This document shows, in pieces, positions 7,706 through 48,213 of a stretch of DNA of 48,213 nt. The notes under the pieces were generated by a model. The model saw only the letters and a list, made by a program, of their open reading frames with translations. It ran no database searches and was not told where the DNA came from. How positions within the stretch are numbered: position 1 is the first letter of the stretch; each line of letters starts with the position of its first letter. The position numbers and the translations under genes were made by a program. The stretch spans positions 1-48,213 of the forward strand of contig CAZZLX010000002.1 of NCBI GenBank assembly GCA_964655235.1, written 5' to 3'. Source of the stretch: an uncultured Rhizobium sp. Lineage in GTDB: Bacteria; Pseudomonadota; Alphaproteobacteria; SHVZ01.

Positions 7706-9265
7706 ATGAAGGGACAGGATGGCTCCTTCGCCTTGAGGCGGCGGCTCGCCGATGCCCCTTCGTCGCCGCAGGACCTCGTCGATCTCGGGCTTGCCGCCTT
7801 CAGGGGGCGCGAGGACGGCGCGGCCAGCTGGCTCGGGCGGGCCGCCGCGACCGTCGAGGACTCCGCGGTGCAGTTCGCCTATGCGGTCGCGACCGCCGAG
7901 AACCGTAACGCGCGGCGCGCGCTCAAACGGGCGCTGACGCTGGAGCCGACCTACTCGCCCGCCTGGGTCGAGCGAGCGTCACGGGATCCGGAGACTGCGG
8001 TCCGCAGTCTCCAGCGCGCGATGACCATCGACCCGACGGATATCGGCCTGGCCGTCAGCTTGGCGGCGGTCCTGCTCGACCGCCGCGAGGTTGCCGGAGC
8101 GCGCACCATCCTGGAGGCTGTTCTCGCCGCCGACCGCGAGCGGGCGTCGGCCTGGATCAATCGGGGCCGGGTCGCCGTCGAAGAGGACGACTGGCCTTAT
8201 GGTCTGGTTTGCGCACGACGCGCAGTCGTCCTTGCACCCGCCATGTTCGAAGGCTGGTTGAATATCGGGGGCATCTTCGAGGAGCGTGGCGACCGGGACG
8301 CGGCCGTCTCCGCCTCGGCACGGGCGGTCGTCATCGAGCCCCGCCACCCCAAGGCGCGATGGAACCGATGCCTGACCCGCCTCGGGCAAGGCGACTGGCG
8401 GAAGGGTTTTGCGGATTTCGACGTCCGCTTCCTGGTCCAGCAAGCCTATCCACACACACTCGCCCTGCCCCGCTGGGACGGCAGGACGCGTGCCGCGCAC
8501 CTGCTCGTCCACGACGAGATCGGCTATGGCGACGTCTTCAACTTCCTTCGCTATGTGCCGTTGGCGAGGGCGCGGGTGGATCGCCTGACGCTCGAGGTGA
8601 AGCCGGGCCTTCCCCGACTGCTCGAGGGATATCCCGGCATCGACCAAGTGATCGAGCGTGGCGCCGTTCCGCCGGTCGAGGCCGGCTATGACGCCTATCT
8701 TCCGATGGAGAGCCTGCCGGGACTTTTCGCGACGACGGTGGAAACAATTCCTCCGCCCACTCCCTACATCCGGCCGCCGGCGGCGTTGAAAGCGGCATGG
8801 GTGCGGCGGCTGGCGGACTGCCACCGTCCGCGCATCGGATTGTGCTGGGCGGGAAATCCCGGAAGCGGCTTCGATCAGAAGCGCTCGTGCCGGCTTTCCG
8901 ACCTGCAGCCCATTCTGGCGGTCGAGGGTCTGTCCTTCGTCTCGCTGCAGAAGGCGCCTGAGCCCATCCTCGCACCCGGCCTGCTCTCGGTCGGAGACCA
9001 GTTCGTGGACTTCGCCGATACGGCTGCCGCCATCTCAGAGCTCGACCTGGTGATTTCCGTCGAGACCTCGGTGGCGCATCTGGCCGGCGCGATGGGGCAG
9101 GCGCTCTGGATCCTGCTGGCGCCCAACCCCGCGTGGCGCTGGCTGCGTGATCGCGAGGATACACCCTGGTATCCGGGTGCCCGGCTCATACGCCGTAAGC
9201 CGGACGAGTCCTGGTCCGACGTGACGAGGAAAGTCGCCGACGACCTGCGAGCGCGCTTTGCTTGA
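7706..9265 (+). CDS. TPR-repeat protein fused to a GT9 (heptosyltransferase-like) domain
   Basis: N-terminal TPR-like repeats. The C-terminal part has GT9-type blocks shared with three paralogs: DEIGYGDVFNFLRYVP, IGLCWAGNP, FADTAAAISELDLVISVETSVAHLAGAMGQALW, and RWLRDREDTPWYPGARLIRR. Confidence 0.8.
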   Translation: MKGQDGSFALRRRLADAPSSPQDLVDLGLAAFRGREDGAASWLGRAAATVEDSAVQFAYAVATAENRNARRALKRALTLEPTYSPAWVERASRDPETAVRSLQRAMTIDPTDIGLAVSLAAVLLDRREVAGARTILEAVLAADRERASAWINRGRVAVEEDDWPYGLVCARRAVVLAPAMFEGWLNIGGIFEERGDRDAAVSASARAVVIEPRHPKARWNRCLTRLGQGDWRKGFADFDVRFLVQQAYPHTLALPRWDGRTRAAHLLVHDEIGYGDVFNFLRYVPLARARVDRLTLEVKPGLPRLLEGYPGIDQVIERGAVPPVEAGYDAYLPMESLPGLFATTVETIPPPTPYIRPPAALKAAWVRRLADCHRPRIGLCWAGNPGSGFDQKRSCRLSDLQPILAVEGLSFVSLQKAPEPILAPGLLSVGDQFVDFADTAAAISELDLVISVETSVAHLAGAMGQALWILLAPNPAWRWLRDREDTPWYPGARLIRRKPDESWSDVTRKVADDLRARFA

Positions 9266-10802
9266 TCCGAAGCTGGAAGCGGCGGTCGCGGCCTTGCATC
9301 AGCGGCAGGGACCGGCGGCGCTTCGGCTGATGCGCGGGCATCTGGCGACGATGCCGTATGACGGACAGGCGCTGCACCTTCTCGGGGTCGCGTGCAACGA
9401 GCTGGGCGCGAAAAGCGATGCGATCGACTGGCTCGGCCGGTGCATCGCGGTCCTGCCCGCGTCGCCTCTCCCCCTGGCAGCGCTCGCCGGCGTCCTCATC
9501 GATCGCGAGGAGATGCAGGCGGCCTTGCGCGCCTTGCGACGCGCCGTGTCATTGGCGCCGGCCGTCGACGTCTACCTGCTCTCGATTGCGGCGGCGCTCG
9601 CGAAGACGATGCCGGCCGCCGAAGCGCTCTGGCTCCGGCGGGCGCTTGCGATCGATATGCGAAACGGGGTAGCCCACGGCAACCTGGGCATCTGCCTCCG
9701 GCGCGAAGAGCGCCTCGATGAGGCAGGAGCGGAAAGTCGGAAGGCGCTCGCCTTCCTGCCGGCCCAGCCGGAAAGCCTCAACAACCTTGTGATCCTGGCG
9801 ATCCGCGACGGCAGGCTGGAAACAGCGGACGTCTGGTCGACGCGCGCTGTCGCGACCCGTCCCGGCTTCGCCGAAGCGACCTGGAACCGCGCGATAGCGC
9901 GCATGCTTGCCGGGAGGTTTCTGGAAGCGTGGGACGACTGGGAGACCCGCTTCGAGGTTCCCGGCGCGCAGAAGCACCGTCATCCCGCCGCCCGCAGATG
10001 GCGTGGCGAGGATCCAGCCGGAAAGACCGTTCTTCTGTTCGCCGAGCAGGGGCTCGGCGACACGATCCAGTTCAGCCGATATGCTCCGCTCGTCGCGGCG
10101 CGGGGCGCACGGGCGGTGCTTGCCGTGCAGGCAAGGCTCGTTCGCCTCCTGAAGACGCTGCCCGGCGTGGCGGACGTCGTTGCCGCGGATGTAAACGAGC
10201 CGGGTTACGACTGGAACTGCCCGTTGATGAGTCTCCCGGCAGTTTTCGGCACGACGCTGGGCTCCGTGCCTGCCGCCGTTCCCTACCTCGCTCCGCAGGA
10301 TTCCGGCCGGCTGGCCTGGAGGCGGCGTCTGGACGCGGGGCGGGCATTGCGCGTGGGCCTCTGCTGGCAGGGCAATCCGGCGAACGCGGACGATCGGAGA
10401 CGCTCGTTTCCCCTCGACGTTTTCGAGGGTCTTCGCGACATGCGGGACGTGCAGTTCGTCGCGATGAGGGTGACGGACGAGCCGATCCCCTCCGGCTGGC
10501 CGATGCTGGACGCGGCGCCATGGCAGCACGACATGGCGGACACCGCCGATCTCCTTGCCGAGCTCGACCTGCTGATCACCTGCGATACGGCAGTGGCCCA
10601 TCTTGCCGGCGCGCTCGGCCGGCCGGTCTGGACGATGCTCGCACATGCCGCGGACTGGCGATGGCTGCAGAAGCGCGAAGACACGCCCTGGTATCCTACG
10701 ATGAGGCTTTTCCGGCAGCCCCGTGCCGGCGACTGGACCTCCGTTGCCGAGGAGGTGAAGCAGGCACTTGCCGCAAGGACGACGAGGTTCGCGCATTCAT
10801 GA
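9258..10802 (+). CDS. TPR-repeat protein fused to a GT9 (heptosyltransferase-like) domain
   Basis: TTG start overlaps the upstream stop (TTGCTTGA). Blocks seen: AEQGLGDTIQFSRYAP, VGLCWQGNP, MADTADLLAELDLLITCDTAVAHLAGALGRPVW, and RWLQKREDTPWYPTMRLFRQ. Confidence 0.8.
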   Translation: MLDPKLEAAVAALHQRQGPAALRLMRGHLATMPYDGQALHLLGVACNELGAKSDAIDWLGRCIAVLPASPLPLAALAGVLIDREEMQAALRALRRAVSLAPAVDVYLLSIAAALAKTMPAAEALWLRRALAIDMRNGVAHGNLGICLRREERLDEAGAESRKALAFLPAQPESLNNLVILAIRDGRLETADVWSTRAVATRPGFAEATWNRAIARMLAGRFLEAWDDWETRFEVPGAQKHRHPAARRWRGEDPAGKTVLLFAEQGLGDTIQFSRYAPLVAARGARAVLAVQARLVRLLKTLPGVADVVAADVNEPGYDWNCPLMSLPAVFGTTLGSVPAAVPYLAPQDSGRLAWRRRLDAGRALRVGLCWQGNPANADDRRRSFPLDVFEGLRDMRDVQFVAMRVTDEPIPSGWPMLDAAPWQHDMADTADLLAELDLLITCDTAVAHLAGALGRPVWTMLAHAADWRWLQKREDTPWYPTMRLFRQPRAGDWTSVAEEVKQALAARTTRFAHS

Positions 10803-12487
10803 GCACGGTCATCGATCCATTTCTCGAGGCGGAGCGGTACCACCGCAACGGCGATATCGCTGGCGCCGAAGCATGGGCGCGGCGCGCGCTGGCACAGTCT
10901 CCGCAAGAGCCGGCCATTCTCAACCTGATGGCGGTGCTGGCCGATCAACGGTTCGATCTCCTCGCCGCGACAACCGCCTATGGCCGCGCCCTGGCGCGCG
11001 ATGCCTACAACCTCATGATCTTCGGCAATCTCGCCGGCACGCTGTCCCGCTACGGTCTCGTAGAGCCCGCGGTGCGCATCGGCCGCCGAACCCTGGCGCT
11101 TTCCCCCGCAGACCAGACGGCCCTCAACAACACCGCACAGGCCCTCAAGGCAGGCGGCTTCGTCAAGGAGTCGATTTCCTGCTACCGGCGCGCCATCGCG
11201 ATCGCTCCTTCGGGTCCGCTGCACAGCAATCTCATCTTCACGATGAGCTACGACGACGAGGTTACGAGCGATGCCCTGTTCGCCGAGTATCGGCGGTGGG
11301 AGGATATCTACGCCCGGCCGCACTATCGGCCCGGCCGACGTCACACCAATCCCGCCGACCCCGATCGGCGGATCGTCGTCGGATATGTTTCTCAGGACTT
11401 TCGCGACCATCCGCTCGGACGAATCCTGGTCGAGCTGATCGAGAACCATGATCCGGGGCGCGTGCAGGTCAACGCGTATGCCTCGATCCGATACTCCGAC
11501 GAGCTGGCGGAACGCTGTCGTCGCCGCAGCGGCGTATGGCGGCAAGTCACCGGACTTTCGGACGCCGACCTCGCCGAGCAGATCCGCGCGGATGGCGTGG
11601 ATATCCTTGTCGTCGTCGGCGGCCACAGTGCACACAACCGCCTGCTGGTGACGGCGCATCGGCCGGCACCGATCCAGGTGAGCCTGGATGACGTCTCGAC
11701 GAGCGGTCTCGAGGTGGTCGACTACTGGATCTCGGATCCTCTGCTGCACCCGATTGACGGCGAAGGCTGGAGCGAGCGGTTCACTGAAACCGTCTTGCGC
11801 CTACCGTGCTTCTTCCTTCAGCCGCCCGATGATCTGGCGCCGCCGGTTCAGGCGCTGCCCGCACTGAAGGCGGGTCGCGTCACCTTCGGCTCCTTCAGCA
11901 ACCCGGCCAAGCTGACGCCGACCACGATCGCGGCGTGGAGCGCGGCGATGCGGACGGTGCCGGGCTCGCGGGTCGGCCTGAAGTACGTCGACTGGTATGC
12001 CGATGCGTCGGTGCAGCGGCGCGTTGTCGGCATGTTCGCGGCCGAGGGCGTGAGCGCCGACCGTATCGTGTTCGGTGGCGGCGACCATACGCGCGCCGAG
12101 CAGCTCGCACTCTGGAACGACATCGACATTGCGCTGGATCCCTTCCCGTTCGGCGGTTGGACTTCCAGCTTCGAGGCGCTGTGGATGGGCGTCCCGGTGA
12201 TCACTCTGTTGGGCGAGCGCTTTGCGGGCCGCGTCGGGTACGCGGTGATGGATCGCCTCGGCCTCGGAAATTACGTCGCGCGGTCGCCGGCCGAGTTCGG
12301 AGCCATCGCCGCTGCCGTCACGCAAGACCTCGGAGCGTTGGCCAGGGTGAGGGCCGAGCTTCGGGAGAGGCTGCGCCGGTCTCCGCTTTGCGACGGCAAG
12401 GTGCAGGCCGGCTATTTCGAGGATGCCTATCGTGAGGTCTGGCGGCGATGGTGCCGCGCGCAAGCGGAGGTCCAGGCGTCTCGATAG
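10799..12487 (+). CDS. TPR-repeat protein fused to a GT41 (OGT/FlmG-like) glycosyltransferase domain
   Basis: I start it at ATG 10799 (MSTVIDPFLEAERYH), which overlaps the upstream TGA as ATGA. The 290-aa Arg-rich extension in the listed ORF from 9929 lies inside the preceding gene. Blocks seen: RRIVVGYVSQDFRDHPLG, VDILVVVGGHS, PAPIQVS, VTFGSFSNPAKL, and LDPFPFGGWTSSFEALWMGVPVITL. Confidence 0.85.
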   Translation: MSTVIDPFLEAERYHRNGDIAGAEAWARRALAQSPQEPAILNLMAVLADQRFDLLAATTAYGRALARDAYNLMIFGNLAGTLSRYGLVEPAVRIGRRTLALSPADQTALNNTAQALKAGGFVKESISCYRRAIAIAPSGPLHSNLIFTMSYDDEVTSDALFAEYRRWEDIYARPHYRPGRRHTNPADPDRRIVVGYVSQDFRDHPLGRILVELIENHDPGRVQVNAYASIRYSDELAERCRRRSGVWRQVTGLSDADLAEQIRADGVDILVVVGGHSAHNRLLVTAHRPAPIQVSLDDVSTSGLEVVDYWISDPLLHPIDGEGWSERFTETVLRLPCFFLQPPDDLAPPVQALPALKAGRVTFGSFSNPAKLTPTTIAAWSAAMRTVPGSRVGLKYVDWYADASVQRRVVGMFAAEGVSADRIVFGGGDHTRAEQLALWNDIDIALDPFPFGGWTSSFEALWMGVPVITLLGERFAGRVGYAVMDRLGLGNYVARSPAEFGAIAAAVTQDLGALARVRAELRERLRRSPLCDGKVQAGYFEDAYREVWRRWCRAQAEVQASR

Positions 12488-14262
12488 GCGTGCTCGACCG
12501 CAGCGGCATAGCTCCGGTCGTCCATTAGCGGCGATCCCGCGAGGCGAGGACGCAGGGTTTCCCGCATCTCCCGCAGGCGACCGACGTCGGTCGCCAGCCG
12601 GCATGCCGTCTCGACATACGCCGCGGGCGTCGGGGCGACCAGCTCCGTGGCGCCGGCATGACGCAGAAGCATCGCGCTGGTCCGTCCGACCATCCGATCG
12701 GCCGCCAGGGTCACGACCGGGATGCCCATCCAGAGAGCTTCGAAGCTGGCCGTCGCGCCGCCGAAGGGATGCGGGTCGAGGGCGATGTCCACCGCGCTTA
12801 GCGCCTGCAGATGCTCGTCCTTGGCGAGAGAGCCGGAGGCGAAGTCGACGCGATCGAGCGGGAGGCCATGGGCGTGCAGGCGCTGCTGCAGCACCGATCG
12901 CGTCGGCGCGTCGCCCGTCCGCCCGTGAAACTTGAGCCAGAGCCTTGCGTCAGGAACCCCTTCCAGGATGCGTGCCCACAGCGCCAGGGTCTGGTCCGAC
13001 CATTTCGCAGGATTGTTCGCCGAGCCGAAGGTGATGAAGCCGTTCCGCAGCGCGGGCGGCGGCTCACAAGGGATGGCGCGCGGCGACCCATACAGGATGA
13101 GAGTCGGGAGATGGTGGACCCGCTCGGCGAAATATTCGGGCGACCCTGCCGGATGCAGATCGCGATCCGAGAAGGTGACGACGCTGTCGGTGCCGGCAGA
13201 AGTGAGATCGTAGGCCGCGAATTGCAGGGGAGCCGCGTGCCTGAATGCGAGCGCCGGCCGGTTGCCTGAGAACCGCGCCGCGACATGGACCAGGATGTCG
13301 ATGCGGTCGGCTTCGATGAGATCGCAAAGCACGGTATCGCTGAGGCCGGTGACGTCGCGCCAGGCGCTGGCTGCCGTCCGGAATCGATCGGTGAGAGCAT
13401 CCGGACGGGCGACGGCGGCATAGAAATGGGCGGCCACCCGGTCGCGGTCATGGGCTTCGACCAGGCCGATGAGGTTATGGCCGACCGGATGGTCGTGGAG
13501 GTCCGAAGAGACATAGCCGACGCGAAGACGCCGCTCCGGCTGCGGATCATGGAGCATCGGCGACCGGATCTCAGCCTTGCGCGCGATCTCTGCATGACGA
13601 CGAACGGCCACGGCCAGCCGAGGTGCGGTCGCCGCATAGGAGGCGATCATGACCGCGAGGTTCGCGTACTCCGCGTGAGCAGGCGAAATGGCGAGCGCCC
13701 TCTCGACAAGAGCTGCCGCGGCGTTTGCGAAGCTCAGGGCCTGCTCGGCGCGGGCGGCCTCGACCAGGGCGTCCGGATCGCCGGGCGCCAAGCTTACGGC
13801 GCGACGCCCGGCGGCGCGCGCCTCAGCCAGGCGACCGCTCGCGCGCAGCAGCGAGGCGGCCACCCGACACACCTCGATCGAATAGGGAGCGAGCGCGGTG
13901 GCGCGCTCGATCGCGCGCCGATGCGCAGGCCCGAGAGCCAGGACGTGCTGGGCACGGGCGAGCGCCGCGTGCCGGGTCGCGTCCTGAGGATCCACGGCCA
14001 GGACGCGTCGAAGGCTGCGGCTCGCGGCGGCAAAGTCGCCGGTACGAAGCTCTACTGCCGCCGCTGCCTCCAGCAGCAAGCTTTGTCCCGGGGACAGGGC
14101 CACCGCCCGATCGATCCAGGGGCGGGAGCTCACCGGATTTCCGTCGTCGGCCAGGTGCGAGCCGAGAGCAATCAGGGCGGTGGCTTCGGCCGGCGCGAAC
14201 GCGATGGCAGCGCGGCACGCCAAAAGGTGCGCGCCTGTCGCGGATCGCGGGAGATTCACCAT
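12427..14262 (-). CDS. TPR-repeat protein fused to a GT41 (OGT/FlmG-like) glycosyltransferase domain
   Basis: Blocks seen: RRLRVGYVSSDLHDHPVGH, IDILVHVAARFSGNR, AAPLQFA, ITFGSANNPAKW, and LDPHPFGGATASFEALWMGIPVVTL. The 3' end overlaps the convergent gene by 61 nt. Confidence 0.85.
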   Translation of the reverse strand: MVNLPRSATGAHLLACRAAIAFAPAEATALIALGSHLADDGNPVSSRPWIDRAVALSPGQSLLLEAAAAVELRTGDFAAASRSLRRVLAVDPQDATRHAALARAQHVLALGPAHRRAIERATALAPYSIEVCRVAASLLRASGRLAEARAAGRRAVSLAPGDPDALVEAARAEQALSFANAAAALVERALAISPAHAEYANLAVMIASYAATAPRLAVAVRRHAEIARKAEIRSPMLHDPQPERRLRVGYVSSDLHDHPVGHNLIGLVEAHDRDRVAAHFYAAVARPDALTDRFRTAASAWRDVTGLSDTVLCDLIEADRIDILVHVAARFSGNRPALAFRHAAPLQFAAYDLTSAGTDSVVTFSDRDLHPAGSPEYFAERVHHLPTLILYGSPRAIPCEPPPALRNGFITFGSANNPAKWSDQTLALWARILEGVPDARLWLKFHGRTGDAPTRSVLQQRLHAHGLPLDRVDFASGSLAKDEHLQALSAVDIALDPHPFGGATASFEALWMGIPVVTLAADRMVGRTSAMLLRHAGATELVAPTPAAYVETACRLATDVGRLREMRETLRPRLAGSPLMDDRSYAAAVEHAYRDAWTSACARHHRRQTSR

Positions 14263-14384
14263 GGAGCAACGGCTTAGCTGCCGTACTCTCCAGGAACAAG
14301 CGGTATCGACCCTCCTCCCGAGGGCGTGCTACGAGCCGGGCCGGATCTCGCCGCGCATCAGACAACTCCGCATCGCCAGCTGGA

Positions 14385-16424: not shown

Positions 16425-16442
16425 ACGGCTGGGAGACGCAAG

Positions 16443-17156
16443 ATGAGTAGGTCCCGTCAGGCCCTTGTCGCCATCGCGTTATGGTGCGCGATGCTCATCG
16501 GGTCGCTGCCTCCGGCGATGGCCGCAGACGACCTCGCCCGAGCCACGGCCCTGATGCAGCGGAACGACTTCGCTGCCGCCATCCCGCTGCTGCGTCAGCT
16601 CGCGGACGAGGGCAACGGGGACGCCCAGGCGTATCTGGGAGGGATTTACCTGGCGGGGCTCGGCGGGCTGCCGCGCGATACGGCGCTCGCTGGGAAATGG
16701 CTCAGACATGCCGCCAGGCAGGGAAATGCGACCGCCGCCTTCAACCTCGGCCTGATGGCGGAGCGGGGCGAAGGCGGGCTCGCAGACTTCAGCGGCGCGA
16801 AGGCCTGGTACGAGCAAGCCGCGTACGGCGGATTCCCGATGGCCATGCTGAAGCTGGGCGAGGCGTATCGCAACGGGTCGGGGACGCCGATCGACCTCCA
16901 GCGGGCGAGGCAGTGGCTGCAATGGGCGGCCGAGGCCGGGCTGTCCGATGCTCAGAACCTTCTCGGCGTGATGATCGCGAAAGGTGAAACCTACGGGTCG
17001 CGGGTCGACGCATATGCCTGGTTCAAGATCGCCGCCCGGGAACGCCAGCCGGAGGCCGAAGGGAACATGGACCTGCTGCGCCCTGAGATGTCCGACCAGG
17101 AGATAGCGGAAGCCGATCGGCACGCCGACGTGTGGCTTCCGATGCATCAGCACTGA
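16443..17156 (+). CDS. Secreted Sel1-like repeat (SLR) protein
   Basis: N-terminal Sec-type signal peptide MSRSRQALVAIALWCAMLIGSLPPAMA|AD. It is followed by about five Sel1-type repeats: GDAQAYLGGIYLAGLG..D...A..W, GNATAAFNLGLMAERGEG, GFPMAMLKLGEAYRNGSG, and LSDAQNLLGVMIAKGE. Confidence 0.8.
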   Translation: MSRSRQALVAIALWCAMLIGSLPPAMAADDLARATALMQRNDFAAAIPLLRQLADEGNGDAQAYLGGIYLAGLGGLPRDTALAGKWLRHAARQGNATAAFNLGLMAERGEGGLADFSGAKAWYEQAAYGGFPMAMLKLGEAYRNGSGTPIDLQRARQWLQWAAEAGLSDAQNLLGVMIAKGETYGSRVDAYAWFKIAARERQPEAEGNMDLLRPEMSDQEIAEADRHADVWLPMHQH

Positions 17157-17180
17157 CTTGGCCCTCCTATCGGATATCGG

Positions 17181-19166: not shown

Positions 19167-20353
19167 TGAAGCTCGTTATCCTCGATCCGGATCTGACGAC
19201 GTTCAGCGGCCACAACTACAACTACCTTGAAGGCATCGCGCGCGAGGCGCGTGCGCGAGGCATCGACACGCGCATATTTGCCTTTCGGAATGTCGAACCA
19301 GCGGTCTCACAGGCGATTGGCGCGATCGGGCACTTCACTACGCCCGGGCGTGCGGTCCTGAACGATATTCCCGGCGGGCGTGAAATCGGCGCGGCCTGGA
19401 CGCATGTTGCTCTTAACGCGGTCTTCCACCGTGATCTGGTTCCGCTCACCGCGGAGCTAGGGCCCGACACGCTGGTGTTCGTGCCGGCGACGACGTCGCG
19501 TCAGCTGCTCGCACTTGCGCAATGGCTTTCGTTGATCGCAGCTCCGTCGTTGCCGACTCTGGTGTGTCTCTTCCGGTACGACCTCGACGCCTATGCCGGC
19601 GAGGTGCCGCGCCTGCAAGTGCCGGCGTTGGTGCTCTCGACCTTAGCGCGTCCCGCAGTGTTCTGCTGCGAGACGGAGGAGAATGCGCAGGCTCACGGGT
19701 CCGCGCTCGATCTCGACTTCGCGACCCTGCCTCTGCCGTTCGTGGTGCCACAAGCGTCGCACCGCCCGCCCCCTCCTGTCCGCCCGGTCGTCGGATACTT
19801 CGGCGACGCGCGGTACATGAAGGGATTTCAGCATCTGCCTGTCCTGAGCGAGCTCGCGCGTGACGCTGGATATCCGTACCGGCTATCGATCCAGACCTTT
19901 GACACCGGCGAAAGCGCGGAAGCGACGGCGAATGTCGAGAAGGTACGCCGGCTGGCTGAGCCGAACGGTTGCGACCTCTCGCTTATCGAAGGCGCCCTGG
20001 ACCTTCCGTCCTATCATCGGCTTCTCGACGCTGCCGACATCGTGTGTCTGCCCTATCTGGCGTCCGCTTATCGGGTCGCGAGCTCAGCGATCTTCTGCGA
20101 GGCGATGTCCGCGGGTCGGGTGCTCGTGATCCCGGACCGTACGTGGATGAGCGCCGCATTCCGTCGGTTGGGCGGTGATCCCGTAACCTTCGACGACTGG
20201 ACTCCGTCGGCAATCGACGAAGCAATACGAAGGGCGGTCGCCGATCTCCCATCCCGAGCCGCCGAAGCGAGGCGTCTCTCCGCGGCCTGGAATGCAGAAA
20301 ACGGCCCCAAGGCCGTGGTTGATCGCCTCGTCCGCTGGCATCGTCGGGGGTAG
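19163..20353 (+). CDS. Putative GT-B fold glycosyltransferase (GT4-like C-lobe)
   Basis: Start is GTG 19163 or ATG 19166, overlapping the upstream TGA. The C-terminal half resembles the GT4 donor-binding lobe: VVGYFGDARYMKGFQHL, ADIVCLPY, and SSAIFCEAMSAGRVLVIPD. No closer family was recognised. Confidence 0.5.
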   Translation: MMKLVILDPDLTTFSGHNYNYLEGIAREARARGIDTRIFAFRNVEPAVSQAIGAIGHFTTPGRAVLNDIPGGREIGAAWTHVALNAVFHRDLVPLTAELGPDTLVFVPATTSRQLLALAQWLSLIAAPSLPTLVCLFRYDLDAYAGEVPRLQVPALVLSTLARPAVFCCETEENAQAHGSALDLDFATLPLPFVVPQASHRPPPPVRPVVGYFGDARYMKGFQHLPVLSELARDAGYPYRLSIQTFDTGESAEATANVEKVRRLAEPNGCDLSLIEGALDLPSYHRLLDAADIVCLPYLASAYRVASSAIFCEAMSAGRVLVIPDRTWMSAAFRRLGGDPVTFDDWTPSAIDEAIRRAVADLPSRAAEARRLSAAWNAENGPKAVVDRLVRWHRRG

Positions 20354-20358
20354 GCGCC

Positions 20359-22787: not shown

Positions 22788-22791
22788 GGCC

Positions 22792-31086: not shown

Positions 31087-31091
31087 GCAGA

Positions 31092-32235: not shown

Positions 32236-32476
32236 ATGCGAACAACGTGCTGCTAGTCAAGCGATTGATTTTCATCATAAAGTCTGTGCACTTATGCGAA
32301 TGGATCGTTGGATCGCTTTACGCGCATTGAGATAATGGACGCCTGAAGCGAACTATGAAATTTTGCGCATGGGTGCGCGGGGCGATTGGGGCGATGATTG
32401 GTTCATGCGAACGATCGCTTCATGCTGCTGATGCCCCGCGTCCATTCGACTGAACTCTTGAGGCGACTGTTCGCAT
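32236..32476. repeat. Repeated ATGCGAA / GATCGCTT motifs upstream of parA (candidate partition site or par operator)
   Basis: ATGCGAA occurs at 32236-32242, 32294-32300 and 32405-32411. The inverted copy TTCGCAT at 32470-32476 overlaps the parA ATG. GATCGCTT occurs at 32311-32318 and 32413-32420. The region is a 261-nt non-coding, lower-G+C gap. Confidence 0.45.
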
Positions 32477-40314: not shown

Positions 40315-40319
40315 ACTCG

Positions 40320-40811: not shown

Positions 40812-40813
40812 GC

Positions 40814-41575
40814 ATGGCCGGGTCGCCCGAAATTCTTGCGCTGATCCCGGCGCGCGGCGGATCCAAGTCGGTGCCGCGCAAGAACATACGCACGGTCGGC
40901 GGCCGCCCGCTGATCGCCTGGTCGATCGAGCAGGCGAAGCGTTCGCGCCGCATCAGCCGCATCGTGGTCACGACCGACGACCAGGAGATTGCAGAGATTG
41001 CGCGCAAGTGGGGCGCGGAGACTCCCTTCATGAGGCCGGCGGAACTGGCGGGTGATCGCTCGACCGACATCGAGTATCACGAGCATGCATTGCGCACGCT
41101 CGCGGCTGCCGAAGGCTATCGCCCCGAGGCCGTCGTCAACCTCCGCCCGACCATGCCGGTCCGCCGCATCGCCACGATAGACCGGGCGATCGATGCGCTG
41201 ATCGCGCGGCCTGATGTGGACTCGGTGCGCAGCGTATCCCTCGCCGAGCAGACACCCTACAAGATGTGGCGCATAGGCGACGGCGGCTTCATGGAGCCGA
41301 TCGCCACGCTTGCCGGTGTCGCCGAACCGTACAACCAGCCGCGGCAGGATCTGCCGCCGGTCTACTGGCAGGACGGGTACGTCGACGTCGTTTGGGCGCG
41401 CGTCGTCCTGGAGCTGCACTCAACCACGGGGCGGCGGATCCTTCCCTTCGTCATCGAGGAGCCCAACCAGGACATCGACTACGAGGACTCCATCGGCGAG
41501 GCGGAACGCCTGCTGAAGGCTCTCGACGAGCCGTCCACGGCGTCATCGTTGCGCGAGGTCAGGCATCCGTCATGA
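40814..41575 (+). CDS. Acylneuraminate (nonulosonate) cytidylyltransferase, CMP-sugar synthetase (NeuA/LegF/PseF family)
   Basis: Blocks seen: ALIPARGGSKSVPRKNIR.VGGRPLIAWSIE, IVVTTDD, RP..LAGD.S, QDLP.VY..DG. This is the CTP_transf_3 pattern. Confidence 0.85.
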   Translation: MAGSPEILALIPARGGSKSVPRKNIRTVGGRPLIAWSIEQAKRSRRISRIVVTTDDQEIAEIARKWGAETPFMRPAELAGDRSTDIEYHEHALRTLAAAEGYRPEAVVNLRPTMPVRRIATIDRAIDALIARPDVDSVRSVSLAEQTPYKMWRIGDGGFMEPIATLAGVAEPYNQPRQDLPPVYWQDGYVDVVWARVVLELHSTTGRRILPFVIEEPNQDIDYEDSIGEAERLLKALDEPSTASSLREVRHPS

Positions 41576-42612
41576 AGGTGCTTCTGTTCGGTCTCGGGTC
41601 GATCGGCCAGCGTCATGCCCGCATCCTGAGGCAGGTGCTGGGCGACGCGGTGGAGCTCGGCGCGTTCCGCCAATGGGGCCGGAAGCTGGTGATCAACGAC
41701 GATCTCAGCGTCATCGAGGGCGTGGATCCGGCCGAGTACTGGGGTGTCCGTAGCTTCTCGCGTCTCGAGGACGCCTTTGCCTGGGGGCCGGCCGCCGCGT
41801 TCGTGACGAACCCGATCTCGATGCACGTCGAGAGCGCACGCCAGGCGATCGAGGCCGGCTGCCACGTCTTCATCGAGAAGCCCCTGAGCCACACCGACGA
41901 TGGCGTCGCCGAGCTCGCCGCGGCGGCGGCCGCGCGCCGCCTCACGCTCGCGGTCGGATATCAGCTCCGCCATCACCCGGCGCTCGTCCTGATAGGTAAG
42001 CGGATCGCTGAAGGTGCCATCGGGCGGGTGTGCGCCGTCGACATCGAGTTCGGTGAGTACTTGCCGACCATGCACGCCTACGAGGACTATCGCGAGACGC
42101 ACATGGCGCGGAAGGACCAGGGCGGCGGCGCCATCCTGTGTCTCAGCCACGAGGTCGATGCGATGTGCTGGCTCTTCGGCGCGCCGCGCTCGGTGCTCAC
42201 GATCGGCGGGCATCTCAGCGACCTCGAGCTGGCTGGGGTCGAGGACGTGGCGACCATGCTGTTCACCGGCGAGCAACGGGGCCGGAAGGTGCCGATGCGC
42301 GTGCATCTCGATTTCCTGCAGCGTCCGCCGCGGCGACGGTACAAGATCGTCGGCGATGCCGGCTCGATCGAGTTCGACTATCATCAGCGCGAGCTCGTTC
42401 AGACGACGCCCGCCGGACGTGACGTGACGGCGTTCACAAGCTGGCATCGCAATCAGATGTTCGAGGCCGAGGTGGCGGAGTTCATGTCCTGCGTACGCGG
42501 CGAACGCGATCCGGTACCGCTTCTGGACGCTGCGCTTTCGACCCATCGCGTGTGCATGGCGGCCCTCCGCTCTCTCGCCTCAGGCACGCCGGTCTCGATC
42601 GACCGGGCATGA
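41572..42612 (+). CDS. Gfo/Idh/MocA family oxidoreductase
   Basis: ATG 41572 overlaps the upstream TGA (ATGA). Blocks seen: MKVLLFGLGSIGQRHARIL and VFIEKPLSH. The listed upstream extension from 41266 is out of frame with, and lies inside, the cytidylyltransferase gene. Confidence 0.75.
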   Translation: MKVLLFGLGSIGQRHARILRQVLGDAVELGAFRQWGRKLVINDDLSVIEGVDPAEYWGVRSFSRLEDAFAWGPAAAFVTNPISMHVESARQAIEAGCHVFIEKPLSHTDDGVAELAAAAAARRLTLAVGYQLRHHPALVLIGKRIAEGAIGRVCAVDIEFGEYLPTMHAYEDYRETHMARKDQGGGAILCLSHEVDAMCWLFGAPRSVLTIGGHLSDLELAGVEDVATMLFTGEQRGRKVPMRVHLDFLQRPPRRRYKIVGDAGSIEFDYHQRELVQTTPAGRDVTAFTSWHRNQMFEAEVAEFMSCVRGERDPVPLLDAALSTHRVCMAALRSLASGTPVSIDRA

Positions 42613-43436
42613 GCGCGCTCCCCGAAAGCTTCTCCCTTGTCGGCCGGACCGCGCTTGTCACCGGTGCCGCCGGGCTGTTCGGCCCCGAGCACGCCGATGC
42701 CCTGCTCGAGATCGGAGGCAGGGTCGTCCTGACCGACATCGACGAGGCCCGCCTAGAACTGGCGGCGCGTCCGCTCGCCGATCGTTACGGGGCGGACCGC
42801 GTGCTCTGGCGAAAGATGAACGTCGCCGATCCGGCTTCGATCCGGGCGGTGGCCGATGATCTCGTCGGCATCCCGGTCGAAATCCTGGTCAACAACGCCG
42901 CGATCGACGCCAAGGTCGGGCCCGGAGCCGGCGCCAACCTGTCGCGGCTGGAGACATTCAGGCTCGAGGCATGGCAGCTGGAAGTCTCTGTCGGACTTAC
43001 CGGTGCCTTCCTTTGCACACAGGTGTTTGGAGCGGCGATGGCCGAGCGCGGCCAGGGCGTCATCCTCAACATCGCCTCCGACCTCTCGGTGATCTCCCCG
43101 GACCAGCGGCTTTATCGCAAGGACGGCGTCGATCTGGCCGCCCAGCCGGTCAAGCCGGTGACCTATTCTGTCATCAAGGCCGGCCTGGTAGGTCTCACCC
43201 GCTATGTCGCGACCTACTGGGCCGACAAGGGCGTGCGGGCCAACGCGCTCTCCCCGGGTGGGATCTTCACCGGCCAGGACGAAGCTTTCGTCCAGCGCCT
43301 GTCGGCGCTGATCCCGATGGGCCGGATGGCGACTCGCCAGGAGTACCGAAGCGCAGTTCAGTTTCTCTGTTCGGACGCTTCGCGGTATATGACCGGGCAG
43401 AACATCGTCATTGACGGCGGCCGTTCGGTCTGGTGA
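42609..43436 (+). CDS. Short-chain dehydrogenase/reductase (SDR; PtmA-like flagellin-modification-type)
   Basis: ATG 42609 overlaps the upstream TGA. Blocks seen: GRTALVTGAAGLFG (TGxxGxxG), NNAA, catalytic YSVIKAG (YxxxK), and ITGQNIVIDGG. Confidence 0.8.
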   Translation: MSALPESFSLVGRTALVTGAAGLFGPEHADALLEIGGRVVLTDIDEARLELAARPLADRYGADRVLWRKMNVADPASIRAVADDLVGIPVEILVNNAAIDAKVGPGAGANLSRLETFRLEAWQLEVSVGLTGAFLCTQVFGAAMAERGQGVILNIASDLSVISPDQRLYRKDGVDLAAQPVKPVTYSVIKAGLVGLTRYVATYWADKGVRANALSPGGIFTGQDEAFVQRLSALIPMGRMATRQEYRSAVQFLCSDASRYMTGQNIVIDGGRSVW

Positions 43437-44350
43437 CCGCGTCCGGCGTCTTCAGCGTCCAAGGAAGCCTGATGAGCAAGACCGTCCAGATCGGCCCGCA
43501 CAAGGTGGGCGAGGGGCAGCCGCCGTTCCTGATCGGCGAGATCGGCATCAACCATAACGGCGACGTCGCCGTGGCCAAGAAGCTGGTGGACCTTGCCGTC
43601 GAGCACAAGTTCCACGCAGTCAAGTTCCAGAAGCGGACCGTCGACGTGGTGTTCACGCCCGAGGAGCTGGCACGTCCACGCGAGTCTCCGTTCGGTACCA
43701 CCAACGGCGACTTGAAGCGGGGGCTCGAGTTCGGGCACGGGCAGTACCGCGAGATTGACGCCCATTGCCGCAAGCAGGGCATCCTCTGGTTCGCCTCGCC
43801 ATGGGACGAGGCCAGCGTCGACTTCCTAGAGGCCTTCTCGCCGCCCTGCCACAAGGTGGCATCCGCCAGCCTGACCGACCGTGGCCTGCTGACGCGGCTG
43901 CGGAAGACCGGTCGTCCGGTGATCCTCTCGACCGGCATGAGTACGCTGGCGCAGATCGACGAGGCGGTGAAGACCCTCGGCGACACGCCGCTGGTACTCA
44001 TGCACACCACGTCGACCTATCCGGCCAAGCACGGCGAGCTTAACCTTGCGGTCATCGAGACCTTGCGCAAACGCTACGACGTGCCGGTTGGGTACAGCGG
44101 CCACGAGCCGGACATCATCCCGACGGTGATGGCCGTGGTCGGCTTCGGCGCCTGTGCGGTAGAGCGCCATATCACGCTCGACCGCTCGATGTGGGGCAGT
44201 GATCAGAGCGCCAGCATCGAGCCGCGCGGCATGGAGCTGGTCAGCAAATACATCCGCATCTGGCCGACGGTCCGCGGCGACGGCGTGAAGCAGGTCTATG
44301 CAAGCGAAGAGCCGATCCTCGCCAAGCTTCGTCGGGTCAAGGACTTCTGA
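43433..44350 (+). CDS. NeuB-family nonulosonate (sialic/legionaminic/pseudaminic-type) synthase lacking the C-terminal SAF domain
   Basis: Blocks seen: PPFLIGEIGINHNGDVAVAKKLVDLA....AVKFQKR, ASPWD..SVDFL, HKVASASLTD, PVILSTGMS, MHTTSTYPA, GYSGHE, and ERHITLDRSMWGSDQSASIEP. The protein ends about 35 aa after this block, so no SAF/antifreeze-like domain is present. The start is GTG 43433 (GTGA overlap) or ATG 43472. Confidence 0.85.
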   Translation: MTASGVFSVQGSLMSKTVQIGPHKVGEGQPPFLIGEIGINHNGDVAVAKKLVDLAVEHKFHAVKFQKRTVDVVFTPEELARPRESPFGTTNGDLKRGLEFGHGQYREIDAHCRKQGILWFASPWDEASVDFLEAFSPPCHKVASASLTDRGLLTRLRKTGRPVILSTGMSTLAQIDEAVKTLGDTPLVLMHTTSTYPAKHGELNLAVIETLRKRYDVPVGYSGHEPDIIPTVMAVVGFGACAVERHITLDRSMWGSDQSASIEPRGMELVSKYIRIWPTVRGDGVKQVYASEEPILAKLRRVKDF

Positions 44351-44380
44351 GCGGATGGCTCGGCGCGAGGTGGTGCGGCC

Positions 44381-45493: not shown

Positions 45494-46857
45494 GACGATG
45501 CCTTAGCCAGAGAAAAGCTTTTCAGATATTGAGACCAGTAAGCATCAGGGGCCCAGCGTGCACGCACTAGGGCTTGGCCCGCCCGGGCGATGCGGACAGC
45601 TTCCTCTGTGTGTGACAAGTAGTGTGTGATCATCTCTGCTAGCTCATCGACATTCGCGTATGGCACATAGTGGACGAAAGGTTCGAACCACTGGCGAATT
45701 GATTCAGTGGCTTGGTCCATGACCAAAGCGCCACATGCCATTCCTTCGATTGTGCGAGCCTTGATCTGGTTGACAATGGATGGTGGGTGAATGGGATTGT
45801 GCGAAGCGAAGTTGATGGTCAGTCGCGATCTTTGGAGGATGTCGACGTACGCCTCCGTCGACAAACGGCCCCCTTCATAAATCGTGACCGGAACGCCGAG
45901 GTGACGCAACTTCTCTAAAGCGCTCCGGCGATCCGGGAAAAAGCTGACGGTTCCGACGAAGCTTACATCGATGTCGCGCGCCAAGTGGGGGCGTTGAGCA
46001 TAGGTCGTCCAGTCGATCGGAGCGCCTGGACTGCACACGATCTTCTTCGGAAAGAGCGGTCGGGCGAAACGCTCGGGAAGATCCCAGACAACGACGCCTC
46101 GTGCTGCATCGACATAGTCGGCGAAGGCCTTTCGAGGGCCTGGGTAGAGTGCGTCTAGAAACAGCACAGATGTCGAAATCCCGCTCTTCTCAAGGCGCTC
46201 GAGGGTCGTGGGCGAGACGAAGCGCCACCGCTCTTCGTCAAGCTTGGGCGGCACGACGATCACCGTTGCGATCCCGAGTCGATCGACGATTTCATCTAGG
46301 TGACAGTCGACCGGCTTCCCTGTCTCCAGGAACAGCTGGTCGGGATGCAGGACGTAGCCTCGAAGGGTGCGCGCTGCGAGGAGTGATCTTTGCAGCGCAA
46401 TGAGACTGGGCACGAGCGGAAGATCGCTCGGCACGCCTTGGCGGTGCGCGTTCATCACCAGCAGGAGTCCGGTTCCCTGTCGCGCTTCCTGGGAGTGAAC
46501 GACATGATCATGGCCGGTGGTGTTACTCGCCTCTCGGCCCAGGATGCAGCGCCTTTCGAGGCGGGTAGTCGCCGGCTCCTTGCCCTGGAGAAACGAAAGA
46601 AGAAGCGCGCACGCGGCTTCACGCAGCCGCTCGTTCATTCCGGATGAGCAGGCGATGGCCCGCAGAGCGCAACTGGGAGCATCTCCATGGCCGAGTTGTT
46701 TGAGCAGGAGTCCGAAGGACAGGAAGGCTTCGGCATTCGCAGGGTCCACGGCGATAGCCGCCATGAGGAGCGAGGCAGCCGCTGCGGCATTCCCCTCTTT
46801 CGCCCGCGATTTCGCGTCGGCCAGCAGCTTGTCGCCAAAGCTGACCGTCGTTGCCAT
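45490..46857 (-). CDS. Putative glycosyltransferase with a CgeB-like (Glyco_trans_1_2) C-terminal domain
   Basis: C-terminal blocks: IDVSFVGTV..FPDRRSALEKL, SRLTINF, IKARTIEGMACGALVMDQATESIRQWFEPFVHYVPYANVDELAEMITHYLSHTEEAVRIARAGQ. I start it at ATG 46857 (TAATG overlap with the upstream stop); ATG 46872 is the alternative. The gene body is about 47-55% G+C, clearly below the flanks. Confidence 0.6.
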   Translation of the reverse strand: MATTVSFGDKLLADAKSRAKEGNAAAAASLLMAAIAVDPANAEAFLSFGLLLKQLGHGDAPSCALRAIACSSGMNERLREAACALLLSFLQGKEPATTRLERRCILGREASNTTGHDHVVHSQEARQGTGLLLVMNAHRQGVPSDLPLVPSLIALQRSLLAARTLRGYVLHPDQLFLETGKPVDCHLDEIVDRLGIATVIVVPPKLDEERWRFVSPTTLERLEKSGISTSVLFLDALYPGPRKAFADYVDAARGVVVWDLPERFARPLFPKKIVCSPGAPIDWTTYAQRPHLARDIDVSFVGTVSFFPDRRSALEKLRHLGVPVTIYEGGRLSTEAYVDILQRSRLTINFASHNPIHPPSIVNQIKARTIEGMACGALVMDQATESIRQWFEPFVHYVPYANVDELAEMITHYLSHTEEAVRIARAGQALVRARWAPDAYWSQYLKSFSLAKASS

Positions 46858-48213
46858 TAGACAGGCGTCCACAGGTGGTTCGATAAAGCAGAGCGGACGG
46901 AGTCTATTACATCAGACCAGGCGCCAGGACGGCTTTGTCGGAATAAACGCAAAGTCGGATACCAGGGACTATCGTCGCGCCCGGTAAGCCAGCGCCAGCA
47001 GTGATCGGTGCGCGATAGCACCCATACCGGCCGCCCGAGCGCACCAGCGAGATGCGCGACGGCGGTGTCGACTGTCAGCACCAGATCAAGATTAGCGACC
47101 AGCGCTGCGGTCTCGTCGAAGTCGGTGAGCAGCGGCGCAAGATCCCTGACCGGAAGCGGGGAGTCGGCTATTTCCGCGGCTGCGCGCCCGACCTGCAGCG
47201 AGAAGAACGCGACGTCGGCAATTTCATCGAGCGGCGCGAAGGACGAGAGCGGTAGCGATCGGCGCCGGTCCGTCTCGGCCGCAGTGCGGTCCTCGGGTCG
47301 CGGATTCCCGGCCCAGGCGAGCCCGATGCGACGCCGGTCCGGCGCCAACGAGTGCAGGCGCGTCTTCCAGGCCGCAACCTTCGCCGGATCCGGCGAGAGA
47401 TAAGGCGCCGCGCCTGGGATGCTTGCGGCCGAGAGGCCGAGCAGTGCCGGCAGGTCGAGGAGCGCGGCGCGCCGGTCGTGCGCCGGTCGGCTCGCGGGCG
47501 CCGGAAAATCCGGACGGCGTCCGCACACTTCGATTCCAGGAAGGCTGCGGGCGAGGAGGGACTGCAGTTCCGGTTGCACTTCGAGAACAACGCGTCGCGC
47601 ACGCTTTGCCGCCAGCGGCGCAAGACGACAGAATTGCAGCGTATCGCCGAAACCCTGCTCGGCGATGAGAAGCAGTGTGCCGTCGAACGGCTCCCCGTCC
47701 CAGGAAATGCCCGCGAGTCCCTCGGTAAGGGCGGAGAAGGCCGGCATCCGCCAGCGCCAGGCGTAGTCGGCGAAGCCGCGATCGAAGTCGCCGAGCGCGA
47801 GGCGAGCCCAGCCGCGGTTCTGCCGGCCGGTGACGTGGTCCGGACGCAGCGCCACGGTGCGGTCGTAAAAGCGAAGAGCGGTCAAATAGTCGGAGTAGCG
47901 TGCGGCGAGAGTGCCGAGGTCGAGGTGTGCGTCCGCGAAGTCGGGAACTAAAACCGCGGCTTGTCTGAGCGCCTCCGAGGCGGTCGCCAGGTCGCCGAGG
48001 CGCAGCGCCGCCAGTCCGAGATTGTGGAGGAAGGCGGCATCGTTCGGAACGAGGGACAGCGACCGGCAAATTTCGGCCGGGATGGTCGCAACATCGGCGC
48101 GATCGAGGCGAAGCATGCCGAGAAGATTGCATGCGTCGGGATCGTCGGGCTGATCGGCGATGTGCTGTCTTAGGAGTCTGGCTGCGGATTTGGTATCTCC
48201 GGCATTGAGGGCT
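46857..48213 (-). CDS. TPR-repeat protein fused to a GT9 (heptosyltransferase-like) domain, 5'-truncated by the window edge
   Basis: The frame stays open upstream of the listed Met at 48116 to the window end (…ALNAGDTKSAARLLRQHIADQPDDPDACNLLGMLRL…). Blocks seen: AEQGFGDTLQFCRLAP, IGLAWAGNP, FDETAALVANLDLVLTVDTAVAHLAGALGRPVW, and RWLTGRDDSPWYPTLRLFRQ. Confidence 0.8.
   Translation of the reverse strand, partial: ALNAGDTKSAARLLRQHIADQPDDPDACNLLGMLRLDRADVATIPAEICRSLSLVPNDAAFLHNLGLAALRLGDLATASEALRQAAVLVPDFADAHLDLGTLAARYSDYLTALRFYDRTVALRPDHVTGRQNRGWARLALGDFDRGFADYAWRWRMPAFSALTEGLAGISWDGEPFDGTLLLIAEQGFGDTLQFCRLAPLAAKRARRVVLEVQPELQSLLARSLPGIEVCGRRPDFPAPASRPAHDRRAALLDLPALLGLSAASIPGAAPYLSPDPAKVAAWKTRLHSLAPDRRRIGLAWAGNPRPEDRTAAETDRRRSLPLSSFAPLDEIADVAFFSLQVGRAAAEIADSPLPVRDLAPLLTDFDETAALVANLDLVLTVDTAVAHLAGALGRPVWVLSRTDHCWRWLTGRDDSPWYPTLRLFRQSRPGAWSDVIDSVRSALSNHLWTPV

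Follow-up and report, generated by a model that had tools for sequence, protein, structure and literature searches.

What is the role of four genes that fuse tetratricopeptide repeats (TPRs) to a domain resembling glycosyltransferase (GT) family 9? They lie on a 48,213-nucleotide (nt) stretch of DNA from an uncultured Rhizobium sp. (contig CAZZLX010000002.1 of assembly GCA_964655235.1), the whole of which is referred to as the window. A reading of these letters alone (the sequence-only reading) had described four TPR-GT9 genes and had proposed that they transfer heptose or another activated sugar to proteins. All four open reading frames (ORFs) are real, the fourth being located on the minus strand. 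Their products are regarded here, with about even confidence, as cytoplasmic TPR-guided protein glycosyltransferases for secreted surface proteins. The genes are designated g1 to g4:

7706..9265, plus strand: g1, TPR and GT9-like C-terminal domain (C-domain), 519 amino acids (aa); Pfam, motifs, AlphaFold2 (AF2) and Foldseek
9258..10802, plus strand: g2, TPR and GT9-like C-domain, 514 aa, TTG start; Pfam, full-length AF2
17181..19166, plus strand: g3, longer TPR array (~11 repeats) and GT9-like C-domain, 661 aa; Pfam
46857..48213, minus strand: g4, TPR and GT9-like C-domain, at least 451 aa; Pfam, ortholog in a sister genome

Window genes were chosen by codon-position GC and Pfam matches, in a window that is GC-rich (63-70%). 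The overlap of g1 and g2 is 8 nt. The g4 frame runs without interruption from its stop at 46857 to base 48212, with the 5' end at or just past the window edge; because its ortholog in a sister metagenome-assembled genome (MAG; locus L165, JBGALV010000003.1) is ~451 aa long (84% identical), g4 should be short of only a few N-terminal residues. N-terminal TPR matches in Pfam are present in 4/4 proteins. Full-length identity among the four is 33-36%, that of the C-domain (C-terminal ~280-310 aa) 40-45%, and the most distant pair, g1 and g4, gives a BLASTP E of 1e-61. Their homology is far beyond chance. In a nearest-neighbour comparison of C-domains, the four share 37-47% with each other and 45-52% with family members in other phyla; being as far from one another as from these, they are old paralogs and not recent duplicates.

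The motifs listed by the sequence-only reading occur in all four proteins with small deviations, several positions differing in single paralogs. Both (A/D)E(Q/I)G(L/F/Y)GD and R(E/D/S)D(T/S)PWYP..RL(F/I/Y)R(Q/R) are found in 4/4, as is the CWAGNP-type motif in the form W(A/Q)GNP. The F.RY element reads FLRY/FSRY in g1/g2 and is altered to CVRY (g3) and FCRL (g4); DT..(A/M)HL deviates in g1 (ETSVAHL), and G.P.W in g1 (GQALW) and g3 (ARPGW). The most divergent of the paralogs is g1 (DEIGYGD, VETSVAHL). No strongly hydrophobic 19-residue stretch is present in g1-g4 (maximum mean Kyte-Doolittle value 1.5-2.1; no dedicated transmembrane predictor was run), and the N-termini of g1-g3 are polar, with no obvious signal peptide on inspection, i.e. 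without a dedicated signal-peptide predictor. Judged from their sequences, the proteins are apparently soluble and cytoplasmic.

A GT9 match of the C-domain, which the sequence-only reading had expected from profile searches, is obtained, but it is marginal. PF01075 scores 29.3 bits in g4 and 24.7 in g2 (above the cut-off of 22), 16.0 in g3 (below) and has no match in g1, aligning ~40 residues only (model positions ~165-208 of 247). NCBIfam heptosyltransferase models (heptosyltransferase I, RfaQ) reach ~20 bits against equivalog cut-offs of 185-467; for TIGR02193 (heptosyltransferase I) the values are 19-21 bits against 185, with 20.7 in g3. Neither PF01075 nor the NCBIfam equivalogs match the C-domain over most of its length. 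A profile search of the PDB returns no matches with a 4-sequence C-domain profile, and WaaC only (E 0.25) with a 27-sequence profile. Aligned by hhalign to E. coli WaaC/WaaF/WaaQ/WaaU, the C-domain yields 94.8% probability and an E of 5e-8 over 42 columns, the family motif LDLVISVDTAVAHLAGALGRP being paired with VVSVD261T262GLSH266LTAALDRP of WaaC. Equivalents of WaaC D261, T262 and H266 are conserved in the family (D-T-x-x-x-H), with E for D in g1. A forced global alignment, of lower confidence, puts the AEQGLGD loop of the family on WaaC G12-D13; the equivalent of WaaC K192 is, in this low-confidence global placement, the Arg of a DRxRS motif. Catalytic-motif residues are invariant or at least 90% conserved in 93-99 homologues, and further conserved motifs are family-specific (W.G, EQG, PYL, WRWL and SPWYP..RLFRQ). 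Against the six GT41 catalytic domains of the window the C-domain profile has an hhalign probability of 0.1%, and PF13844 has no match in g1-g4. The C-domain is a distinct family in the GT9-like branch of GT-B enzymes and likely keeps the catalytic Asp and the donor-site D-T-x-x-x-H. Its membership in GT9 sensu stricto is not established, and the name GT9 is true only at a distance.

In the full-length AF2 model of g2 (predicted local distance difference test, pLDDT, 95.5; predicted TM-score, pTM, 0.91), 14 TPR helices (residues 4-233) precede a GT-B portion (residues 257-514) modelled as two Rossmann-like lobes. Foldseek matches of full-length g2 are mostly TPR proteins (SPY, OGT and designed consensus TPRs, CTPRs) with a query TM-score (TMq) <= 0.46. 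Because TPR proteins dominate this full-length search, the C-domain was remodelled alone, for g1, the paralog without a Pfam GT9 match (pLDDT 93.5). Its best PDB matches are WaaF (1psw, E 1e-7), the Veillonella GT9 3tov, PnsB1, WaaC and TibC; the top GT9 entries are 1psw, 3tov, 6dfe, 2h1h and 2gt1, TibC comes after them, and epimerases, GT1s, MurG and EarP match far more weakly. The structural comparison with WaaC/WaaF and TibC, proposed by the sequence-only reading, bears out its assignment insofar as the closest solved relatives are GT9 enzymes plus TibC, with a GT-B fold. PnsB1 chains of the chloroplast NADH dehydrogenase-like (NDH) complex (9grx_1, 7f9o_6, 7wff_a) are also among the best folds (TMq up to 0.65); PnsB1 is a GT9-like fold serving as a structural subunit in plants. 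The TPRs of g2 match the OGT TPR domain, e.g. 6eou with a root-mean-square deviation of 2.8 Å over 227 columns. Repeats near the catalytic domain carry Asn at 34-residue spacing, up to an invariant WNR(G/A) cap packed against the catalytic domain.

The four genes add to a very large family that is annotated but unstudied. When the C-domain of g2 is used in a word-indexed search, at least ~7,900 matches are returned, nearly all of them TPR plus C-domain proteins of 430-540 aa, with the usual names 'tetratricopeptide repeat protein', 'TadD/PilF' and 'TPR-containing glycosyltransferase family protein'. Among 1.84 billion 50%-identity representatives, an exhaustive phmmer scan finds 40,576 proteins with E <= 1e-3, 18,015 of them reaching E <= 1e-30. 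Family genomes belong to Alpha-, Beta- and Gammaproteobacteria, Geobacterales, Nitrospirota, Planctomycetota, Acidobacteriota, Cyanobacteria, Chloroflexota, Negativicutes and others, and Azospirillum chromids possess 10-12 family copies each. Giants of 1,300-3,100 aa, in which 3-6 TPR + GT9-like modules follow one another, also belong to the family. The C-domain is covered by no Pfam or NCBIfam model, and a literature search found no paper describing a TPR-GT9-like family. The architecture, considered functionally uncharacterised by the sequence-only reading, is so in the literature, but it is extremely common and generically annotated, not unusual.

Gene neighbourhoods were surveyed at 182 family loci (2.9 Mb from three retrievals, in which one locus was sampled twice) and at 80 SecA-centred controls (1.0 Mb) with iterated hidden Markov model searches of all ORFs:

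flagellin: 13/182 family loci, 0/80 controls
GT41 catalytic-domain gene: 28/182 family loci, 0/80 controls
DUF6165, adjacent or fused: 13/182 family loci, 0/80 controls
Sel1 protein: 9/182 family loci, 0/80 controls
Maf: 5/182 family loci, 0/80 controls
HlyD: 5/182 family loci, 0/80 controls
gmhA: 3/182 family loci, 1/80 controls
second family copy: 49/182 family loci, controls not counted

NeuB is found near family members at 2/182 loci. A single-pass phmmer screen with E. coli FliC (3/78) understated the flagellin link, iterated searches giving 10/102 and then 13/182. The GT41 search was redone with catalytic domains only because full-length queries matched nearly every locus via their TPRs. 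In Geobacterales, Chloroflexota, Nitrospirota and Rhodospirillales, the flagellin gene is often the immediate same-strand neighbour of the TPR-GT9-like gene. At the Geobacter/Desulfuromonadaceae loci L012, L017, L026 and L027, a multi-module member of ~2,250 aa stops 0-30 nt short of fliC; further flagellin-abutting loci are L013/L204, L022 (Chloroflexota), L186 (Thalassobaculum) and L255, and 2/3 extra metagenomic contexts lie inside flagellar clusters. A nearest-neighbour analysis of the C-domain separates no 'flagellin-adjacent' subfamily from the window paralogs. On plasmid pAB510f of Azospirillum sp. B510 (L272, 194539-219447), a family member is situated between a 2,751-aa Ca-binding protein and Sel1-HlyD-ABC type I secretion genes; the locus also contains two TPR-GT41 genes, a GDP-fucose synthase and a GmhA-like isomerase (195 bits against a cut-off of 209). 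The Ca-binding protein is a possible non-flagellin client.

Of the two parts of the earlier proposal, protein-directed transfer is the best reading, from gene context and the cytoplasmic look of the proteins, while heptose as the donor has no contextual support: heptose-pathway genes are missing from the window, and gmhA is not enriched at family loci. Heptose is suggested by ancestry only, nonulosonates by co-location only.

Catalytic activity, the protein acceptor and the time and place of action are proposed from the observed architecture, fold, motifs and associations. The N-terminal TPR superhelix (5 to ~11 repeats) would select the protein acceptor, and the C-terminal GT-B domain would transfer a nucleotide-activated sugar, presumably with inversion as in GT9 enzymes; the Asp of the EQGxGD loop is the putative base, and the donor would be held by the D-T-x-x-x-H / R-S motifs. 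In concert with six TPR-GT41s, two Mafs and the other GTs of the surrounding gene island, g1-g4 would decorate surface proteins before export. Acceptors would be flagellins in many lineages; a repeats-in-toxin (RTX)-type protein may take this part in Azospirillum B510, and a client of SecA/SecB in the window lineage. Because flagellin recurs family-wide and SecA/SecB head the operons of this lineage, the acceptor here may be a Sec-routed protein, flagellin or both. The recurrence of family members beside flagellin, Maf and TPR-GT41 genes and the OGT-like TPRs speak for this role.

The operon containing g1 and g2 starts with two genes:

4499..4894, plus strand: 131-aa DUF6165 protein that opens the SecA-g1-g2 operon; PF19662, 6.8e-9
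4979..7645, plus strand: divergent full-length SecA, 888 aa, ending 60 nt upstream of g1; Pfam

This SecA is complete, with all SecA domains, Walker motifs and a C-terminal CPCGSG..CHG zinc finger. Its clade consists of eight 90%-clusters (100, 95, 82, 77, 75, 62, 62 and 61% identity), outside which identity is at most about 51% to anything among 5.8 billion proteins. The 112 nearest outside SecAs are 46.5-51.6% identical to the window SecA, with a median of 66% among themselves, and the nearest of them (P0130) comes from unrelated assemblies. The order RepA_C ... DUF6165-SecA-g1-g2-GT41-GT41-GT41-Sel1-g3 is kept in all clade members examined, to 61% SecA identity. In the sister MAG L165, the stretch 5870-6913 (plus strand), which corresponds to DNA just past the right end of the window, contains two small paralogous ORFs of ~90 aa without Pfam match, followed by a SecB homologue (PF02556, 1e-27). 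Directly downstream of this SecB and on the same strand, three TPR-GT9-like genes stand in tandem, and the g4 ortholog is the last of them. Further upstream of this SecB lie a PseB-type dehydratase and another GT41 gene. Both TPR-GT9 operons of the lineage are headed by a Sec component (SecA, and SecB in the sister MAG). These SecA and SecB proteins are probably accessory copies, and the SecA of the window may represent a SecA2-like accessory paralog in a Gram-negative host. Linkage to SecA, from which the sequence-only reading had argued, is real and conserved in the lineage, yet it is confined to one small clade and is not a trait of the family: in the survey of family loci, no linkage to SecA/SecB is seen outside the window-SecA clade.

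In several Planctomycetota, an alphaproteobacterial MAG and Azospirillum sp. OGB3, DUF6165 follows the GT domain within one polypeptide, as a C-terminal fusion; in other Alphaproteobacteria it is encoded by a separate adjacent gene. These fusions argue for a physical partnership, and DUF6165 is likely an accessory, possibly adaptor, subunit of the GT9-like enzymes. The DUF6165 protein of the window has weak similarity to DUF4254 as well.

The surroundings of g1-g4 form a protein-glycosylation island, which comprises in addition:

1-693, plus strand: plasmid-type RepA_C, truncated 5' at the window start; 45-47% identity to annotated RepA
698..2707, minus strand: TPR-GT41 paralog; Pfam
10799..12487, plus strand: TPR-GT41 paralog, ATG overlapping the g2 stop (ATGA); Pfam, gene spacing
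12427..14262, minus strand: TPR-GT41 paralog; Pfam, gene calls in L162
14385..16424, plus strand: TPR-GT41 paralog, 679 aa; Pfam, start from gene calls in near-identical contigs
16443..17156, plus strand: Sel1-repeat protein, ending 24 nt upstream of g3; Pfam
19163..22248, plus strand: two genes coupled to g3, a 396-aa protein and a 629-aa GT; Pfam
22245-25375, minus strand: GNAT acetyltransferase, then a trio of WbuZ (HisF-like), HisH-like amidotransferase and WbuX
25495..27789, minus strand: TPR-GT41 paralog; Pfam
29103-30992, minus strand: 629-aa phage-integrase-family protein
31092-32213, plus strand: HTH_13 protein
32475-33152, plus strand: ParA-like ATPase
34113..36122, plus strand: TPR-GT41 paralog, strongest GT41 match (265 bits); Pfam
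36094-38124, minus strand: Maf gene, one of a pair (676 or 681 aa); flagellin nonulosonate transferase family
38269-40314, plus strand: Maf gene, the other of the pair (676 or 681 aa), divergent from the neighbouring Maf; flagellin nonulosonate transferase family
40814..44350, plus strand: CMP-nonulosonate genes (cytidylyltransferase, GFO/IDH/MocA oxidoreductase, SDR, NeuB)
within 44381-46872: polysaccharide pyruvyl-transferase-like gene, end of the nonulosonate cluster
45490-46872: 460-aa GT (Glyco_trans_1_2, weak GT90 match)

The interleaving with GT41 paralogs reported by the sequence-only reading is confirmed, six TPR-GT41 genes being located among g1-g4. Gene spacing delimits two operons, DUF6165 - SecA - g1 - g2 - GT41 and GT41 - Sel1 - g3 - 396-aa protein - 629-aa GT. 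The start of the 396-aa gene overlaps the g3 stop by 4 nt; its product has no Pfam match, and its GT-B likeness was judged only by eye. For the 629-aa protein, a GT1-type match falls just under the cut-off. With GT4 and GT1-type enzymes also present, the island counts at least 16 GT-like genes. The 460-aa GT has no relative in the genome collection, and the sister MAG, collinear in other respects, does not have it. The scan of the window ORFs shows no waa, lipopolysaccharide (LPS)-core, 3-deoxy-D-manno-octulosonate (Kdo), lipid A or heptose-pathway genes, and no autotransporter gene.

WbuX is an N-acetyl-sugar amidotransferase, and the trio of WbuZ, HisH-like protein and WbuX is the set that makes acetamidino groups on nonulosonic or other amino sugars. 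A second NeuB is encoded upstream of the window in near-identical contigs (L162, 449-1555), and together with the two Mafs it hints at two nonulosonate pathways and transferases. Relatives of RepA_C are the RepA proteins of Roseomonas, Azospirillum and Tistrella plasmids/chromids, a resemblance that suggests a Rhodospirillales-type secondary replicon; RepA_C and the integrase, HTH_13 and ParA-like genes in mid-island suggest a secondary replicon and/or an inserted mobile element.

Several observations weigh against TPR-guided protein glycosylation. Flagellin is not a Sec substrate, so that the flagellin and SecA/SecB clues point to different acceptors, and neither a flagellin gene nor one for an obvious Ser/Thr-rich substrate is among the window ORFs scanned. 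Flagellin is missing within 8-10 kb at about 90% of family loci, many members come from groups that are not known to be flagellated (such as filamentous cyanobacteria and Planctomycetota), and no biochemical or genetic data on any family member were found in the literature. The K192 equivalent, in its low-confidence placement, is Arg. The giants with 3-6 modules resemble glycan assembly lines more than single-site protein modifiers, the full-length Foldseek matches include the TPR-containing capsule polymerase 8qoy, and TPR domains also act as oligomerisation scaffolds in polysaccharide polymerases. The many hosts without a nearby flagellin gene, the multi-module polypeptides and the polymerase match, along with the number of GT-like genes in the island and the translational coupling of paralogs to other GTs, would also suit glycan-building enzymes that act on a sugar acceptor (a glycan already carried by flagellin or another protein, or a lipid-linked or polymeric one) and use their TPRs for oligomerisation or as a scaffold assembling the island GTs. 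This is unlikely, though it deserves serious weight: the window ORFs scanned include no polysaccharide export, Wzx/Wzy, ABC-transporter or lipid-carrier priming genes, g1-g4 have no membrane-anchoring segment, and same-strand abutment to flagellin in several phyla together with OGT-like, Asn-periodic TPRs fits a protein reader better.

Transferases of the FlmG type, which would pass CMP-pseudaminic or CMP-legionaminic acid of the island to a flagellin bound by the TPRs, follow the same two-domain logic (PMC7591256; bioRxiv 10.1101/2022.03.25.485807). The NeuB, CMP-sugar synthetase and acetamidino-modification genes of the window, the second NeuB upstream and the flagellin genes adjoining family loci agree with such a role. 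It is nevertheless improbable, as the two Mafs already supply the expected nonulosonate transferases, NeuB is rare near family members, and the nearest fold and motif relatives use ADP-heptose, not CMP-sugars; moreover, one account limits FlmG to Caulobacterales (bioRxiv 10.1101/2023.12.03.569772), whereas the TPR-GT9-like family spans many phyla, and no Caulobacter protein is among the relatives of a Caulobacteraceae family member. That g1-g4 are ordinary LPS-core heptosyltransferases (WaaC/WaaF/WaaQ-like) carrying TPRs is a very remote prospect. The weak Pfam GT9 and NCBIfam heptosyltransferase I/RfaQ matches and the GT9 enzymes among the best folds point that way, but those matches stay far below the equivalog cut-offs and align ~40 residues, Kdo, lipid A, waa and heptose-pathway genes are missing from the window, gmhA is not enriched, 4 to at least 6 paralogs occur per island (10-12 per Azospirillum replicon), and the motifs WRWL and SPWYP..RLFRQ are not found in GT9. 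Equally improbable are catalytically dead GT9-like scaffolds for protein assembly, a role modelled on PnsB1, whose chains in NDH-photosystem I supercomplexes rank so high among the fold matches; the proposed equivalents of the GT9 base and donor motif and other polar residues are invariant or nearly so in ~100 homologues, which is typical of active enzymes.

TPR-guided glycosylation of surface proteins might here be part of something larger. Accessory SecA and SecB paralogs, plasmid- or chromid-borne, would each head a TPR-GT9-like operon, DUF6165 would be a dedicated subunit and the TPR-GT41s would be partners; the cytoplasmic client glycosylated by these enzymes would be handed to the specialised SecA/SecB. 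The island would then be a self-contained glycoprotein export route and the family a third major class of bacterial cytoplasmic protein glycosyltransferases, a rather doubtful proposition at present. If true, the route would be a Gram-negative counterpart of the Gram-positive SecA2 system, combining GT9-like and GT41-like lineages already known to modify Sec-exported adhesins (TibA/AIDA-I, HMW1), and a family of >40,000 clusters would serve flagellins, RTX adhesins and Sec substrates. The lineage-specific coupling to SecA/SecB could also bring to light an export path dedicated to glycoproteins in a Gram-negative bacterium. The choice of targets in cytoplasmic glycosylation is understood for few enzymes (OGT-like GT41s, FlmG, Maf, BAHT, i.e. 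bacterial autotransporter heptosyltransferases, and EarP). Tens of thousands of records named 'tetratricopeptide repeat protein' now carry a testable hypothesis, that of a new class of surface-protein glycosyltransferases, and tractable hosts are available in Azospirillum, Geobacter/Geomonas, Thalassobaculum and Sporomusa. Of greater interest than g1-g4 themselves are the family-wide coupling to flagellin, GT41 and DUF6165 and the SecA/SecB coupling of the lineage, both suggested by the comparative data.

Among known systems, the accessory Sec of Gram-positives (SecA2/SecY2, GtfA/GtfB) exports a glycoprotein. The likeness lies in a divergent SecA encoded with cytoplasmic glycosyltransferases, its status as a second copy being likely here; unlike accessory Sec, no SecY2/Asp proteins are seen and no serine-rich substrate is identified in the window, and the host is a Gram-negative alphaproteobacterium. 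E. coli WaaC/WaaF (2GT1, 2H1H, 6DFE, 1PSW) and Veillonella 3TOV share the GT-B fold (E 1e-7 to 1e-4, TMq 0.54-0.60), the donor motif VDTxxxHLxxAxxxP and, by the lower-confidence global alignment, an N-terminal GD loop. WaaC/WaaF have 320-350 aa, whereas the C-domain of the family is shorter (~275 aa), with what appears to be Arg at the Lys192 position; the family differs further in its TPR fusion, many paralogs, extra motifs and a gene context without LPS-core or heptose genes.

The BAHT enzymes TibC/Aah (4RAP, 4RB4) are GT9-like GT-B proteins as well (fold match E ~3e-5, TMq 0.50-0.57) and glycosylate a secreted protein in the cytoplasm before Sec export. They have no TPRs and form iron-containing dodecamers via a Cys-rich motif; g1-g4 have no BAHT-like Cys cluster in their sequences and no adjacent autotransporter gene. 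As far as Lu et al. 2014 is reported in PMC7591256, TibC/Aah act on Sec-exported adhesins in the cytoplasm, and HMW1C, a GT41 enzyme, likewise glycosylates a Sec-exported adhesin there (PMC3012730).

FlmG and Maf-1 bind flagellin via TPRs (PMC7591256; bioRxiv 10.1101/2023.12.03.569772). In FlmG an N-terminal TPR domain (flagellin binding shown experimentally) precedes a C-terminal GT-B domain (donor specificity) in a soluble, cytoplasmic protein, a layout that g1-g4 share when compared by description only. FlmG is encoded with nonulosonate biosynthesis genes, and the window has Pse/Leg-type genes and Maf but no flagellin. The reported distribution of FlmG is narrow, whereas the TPR-GT9-like family comprises >40,000 50%-identity clusters in many phyla. 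OGT, SPINDLY and bacterial GT41 proteins also have a TPR superhelix directly before a GT-B domain, with NLG-type TPRs and periodic Asn; their catalytic domains are unrelated to the C-domain at profile level, and full-length superposition is poor (TMq <= 0.46). The family is best described as a variant of the TPR-directed GT-B protein glycosyltransferases.

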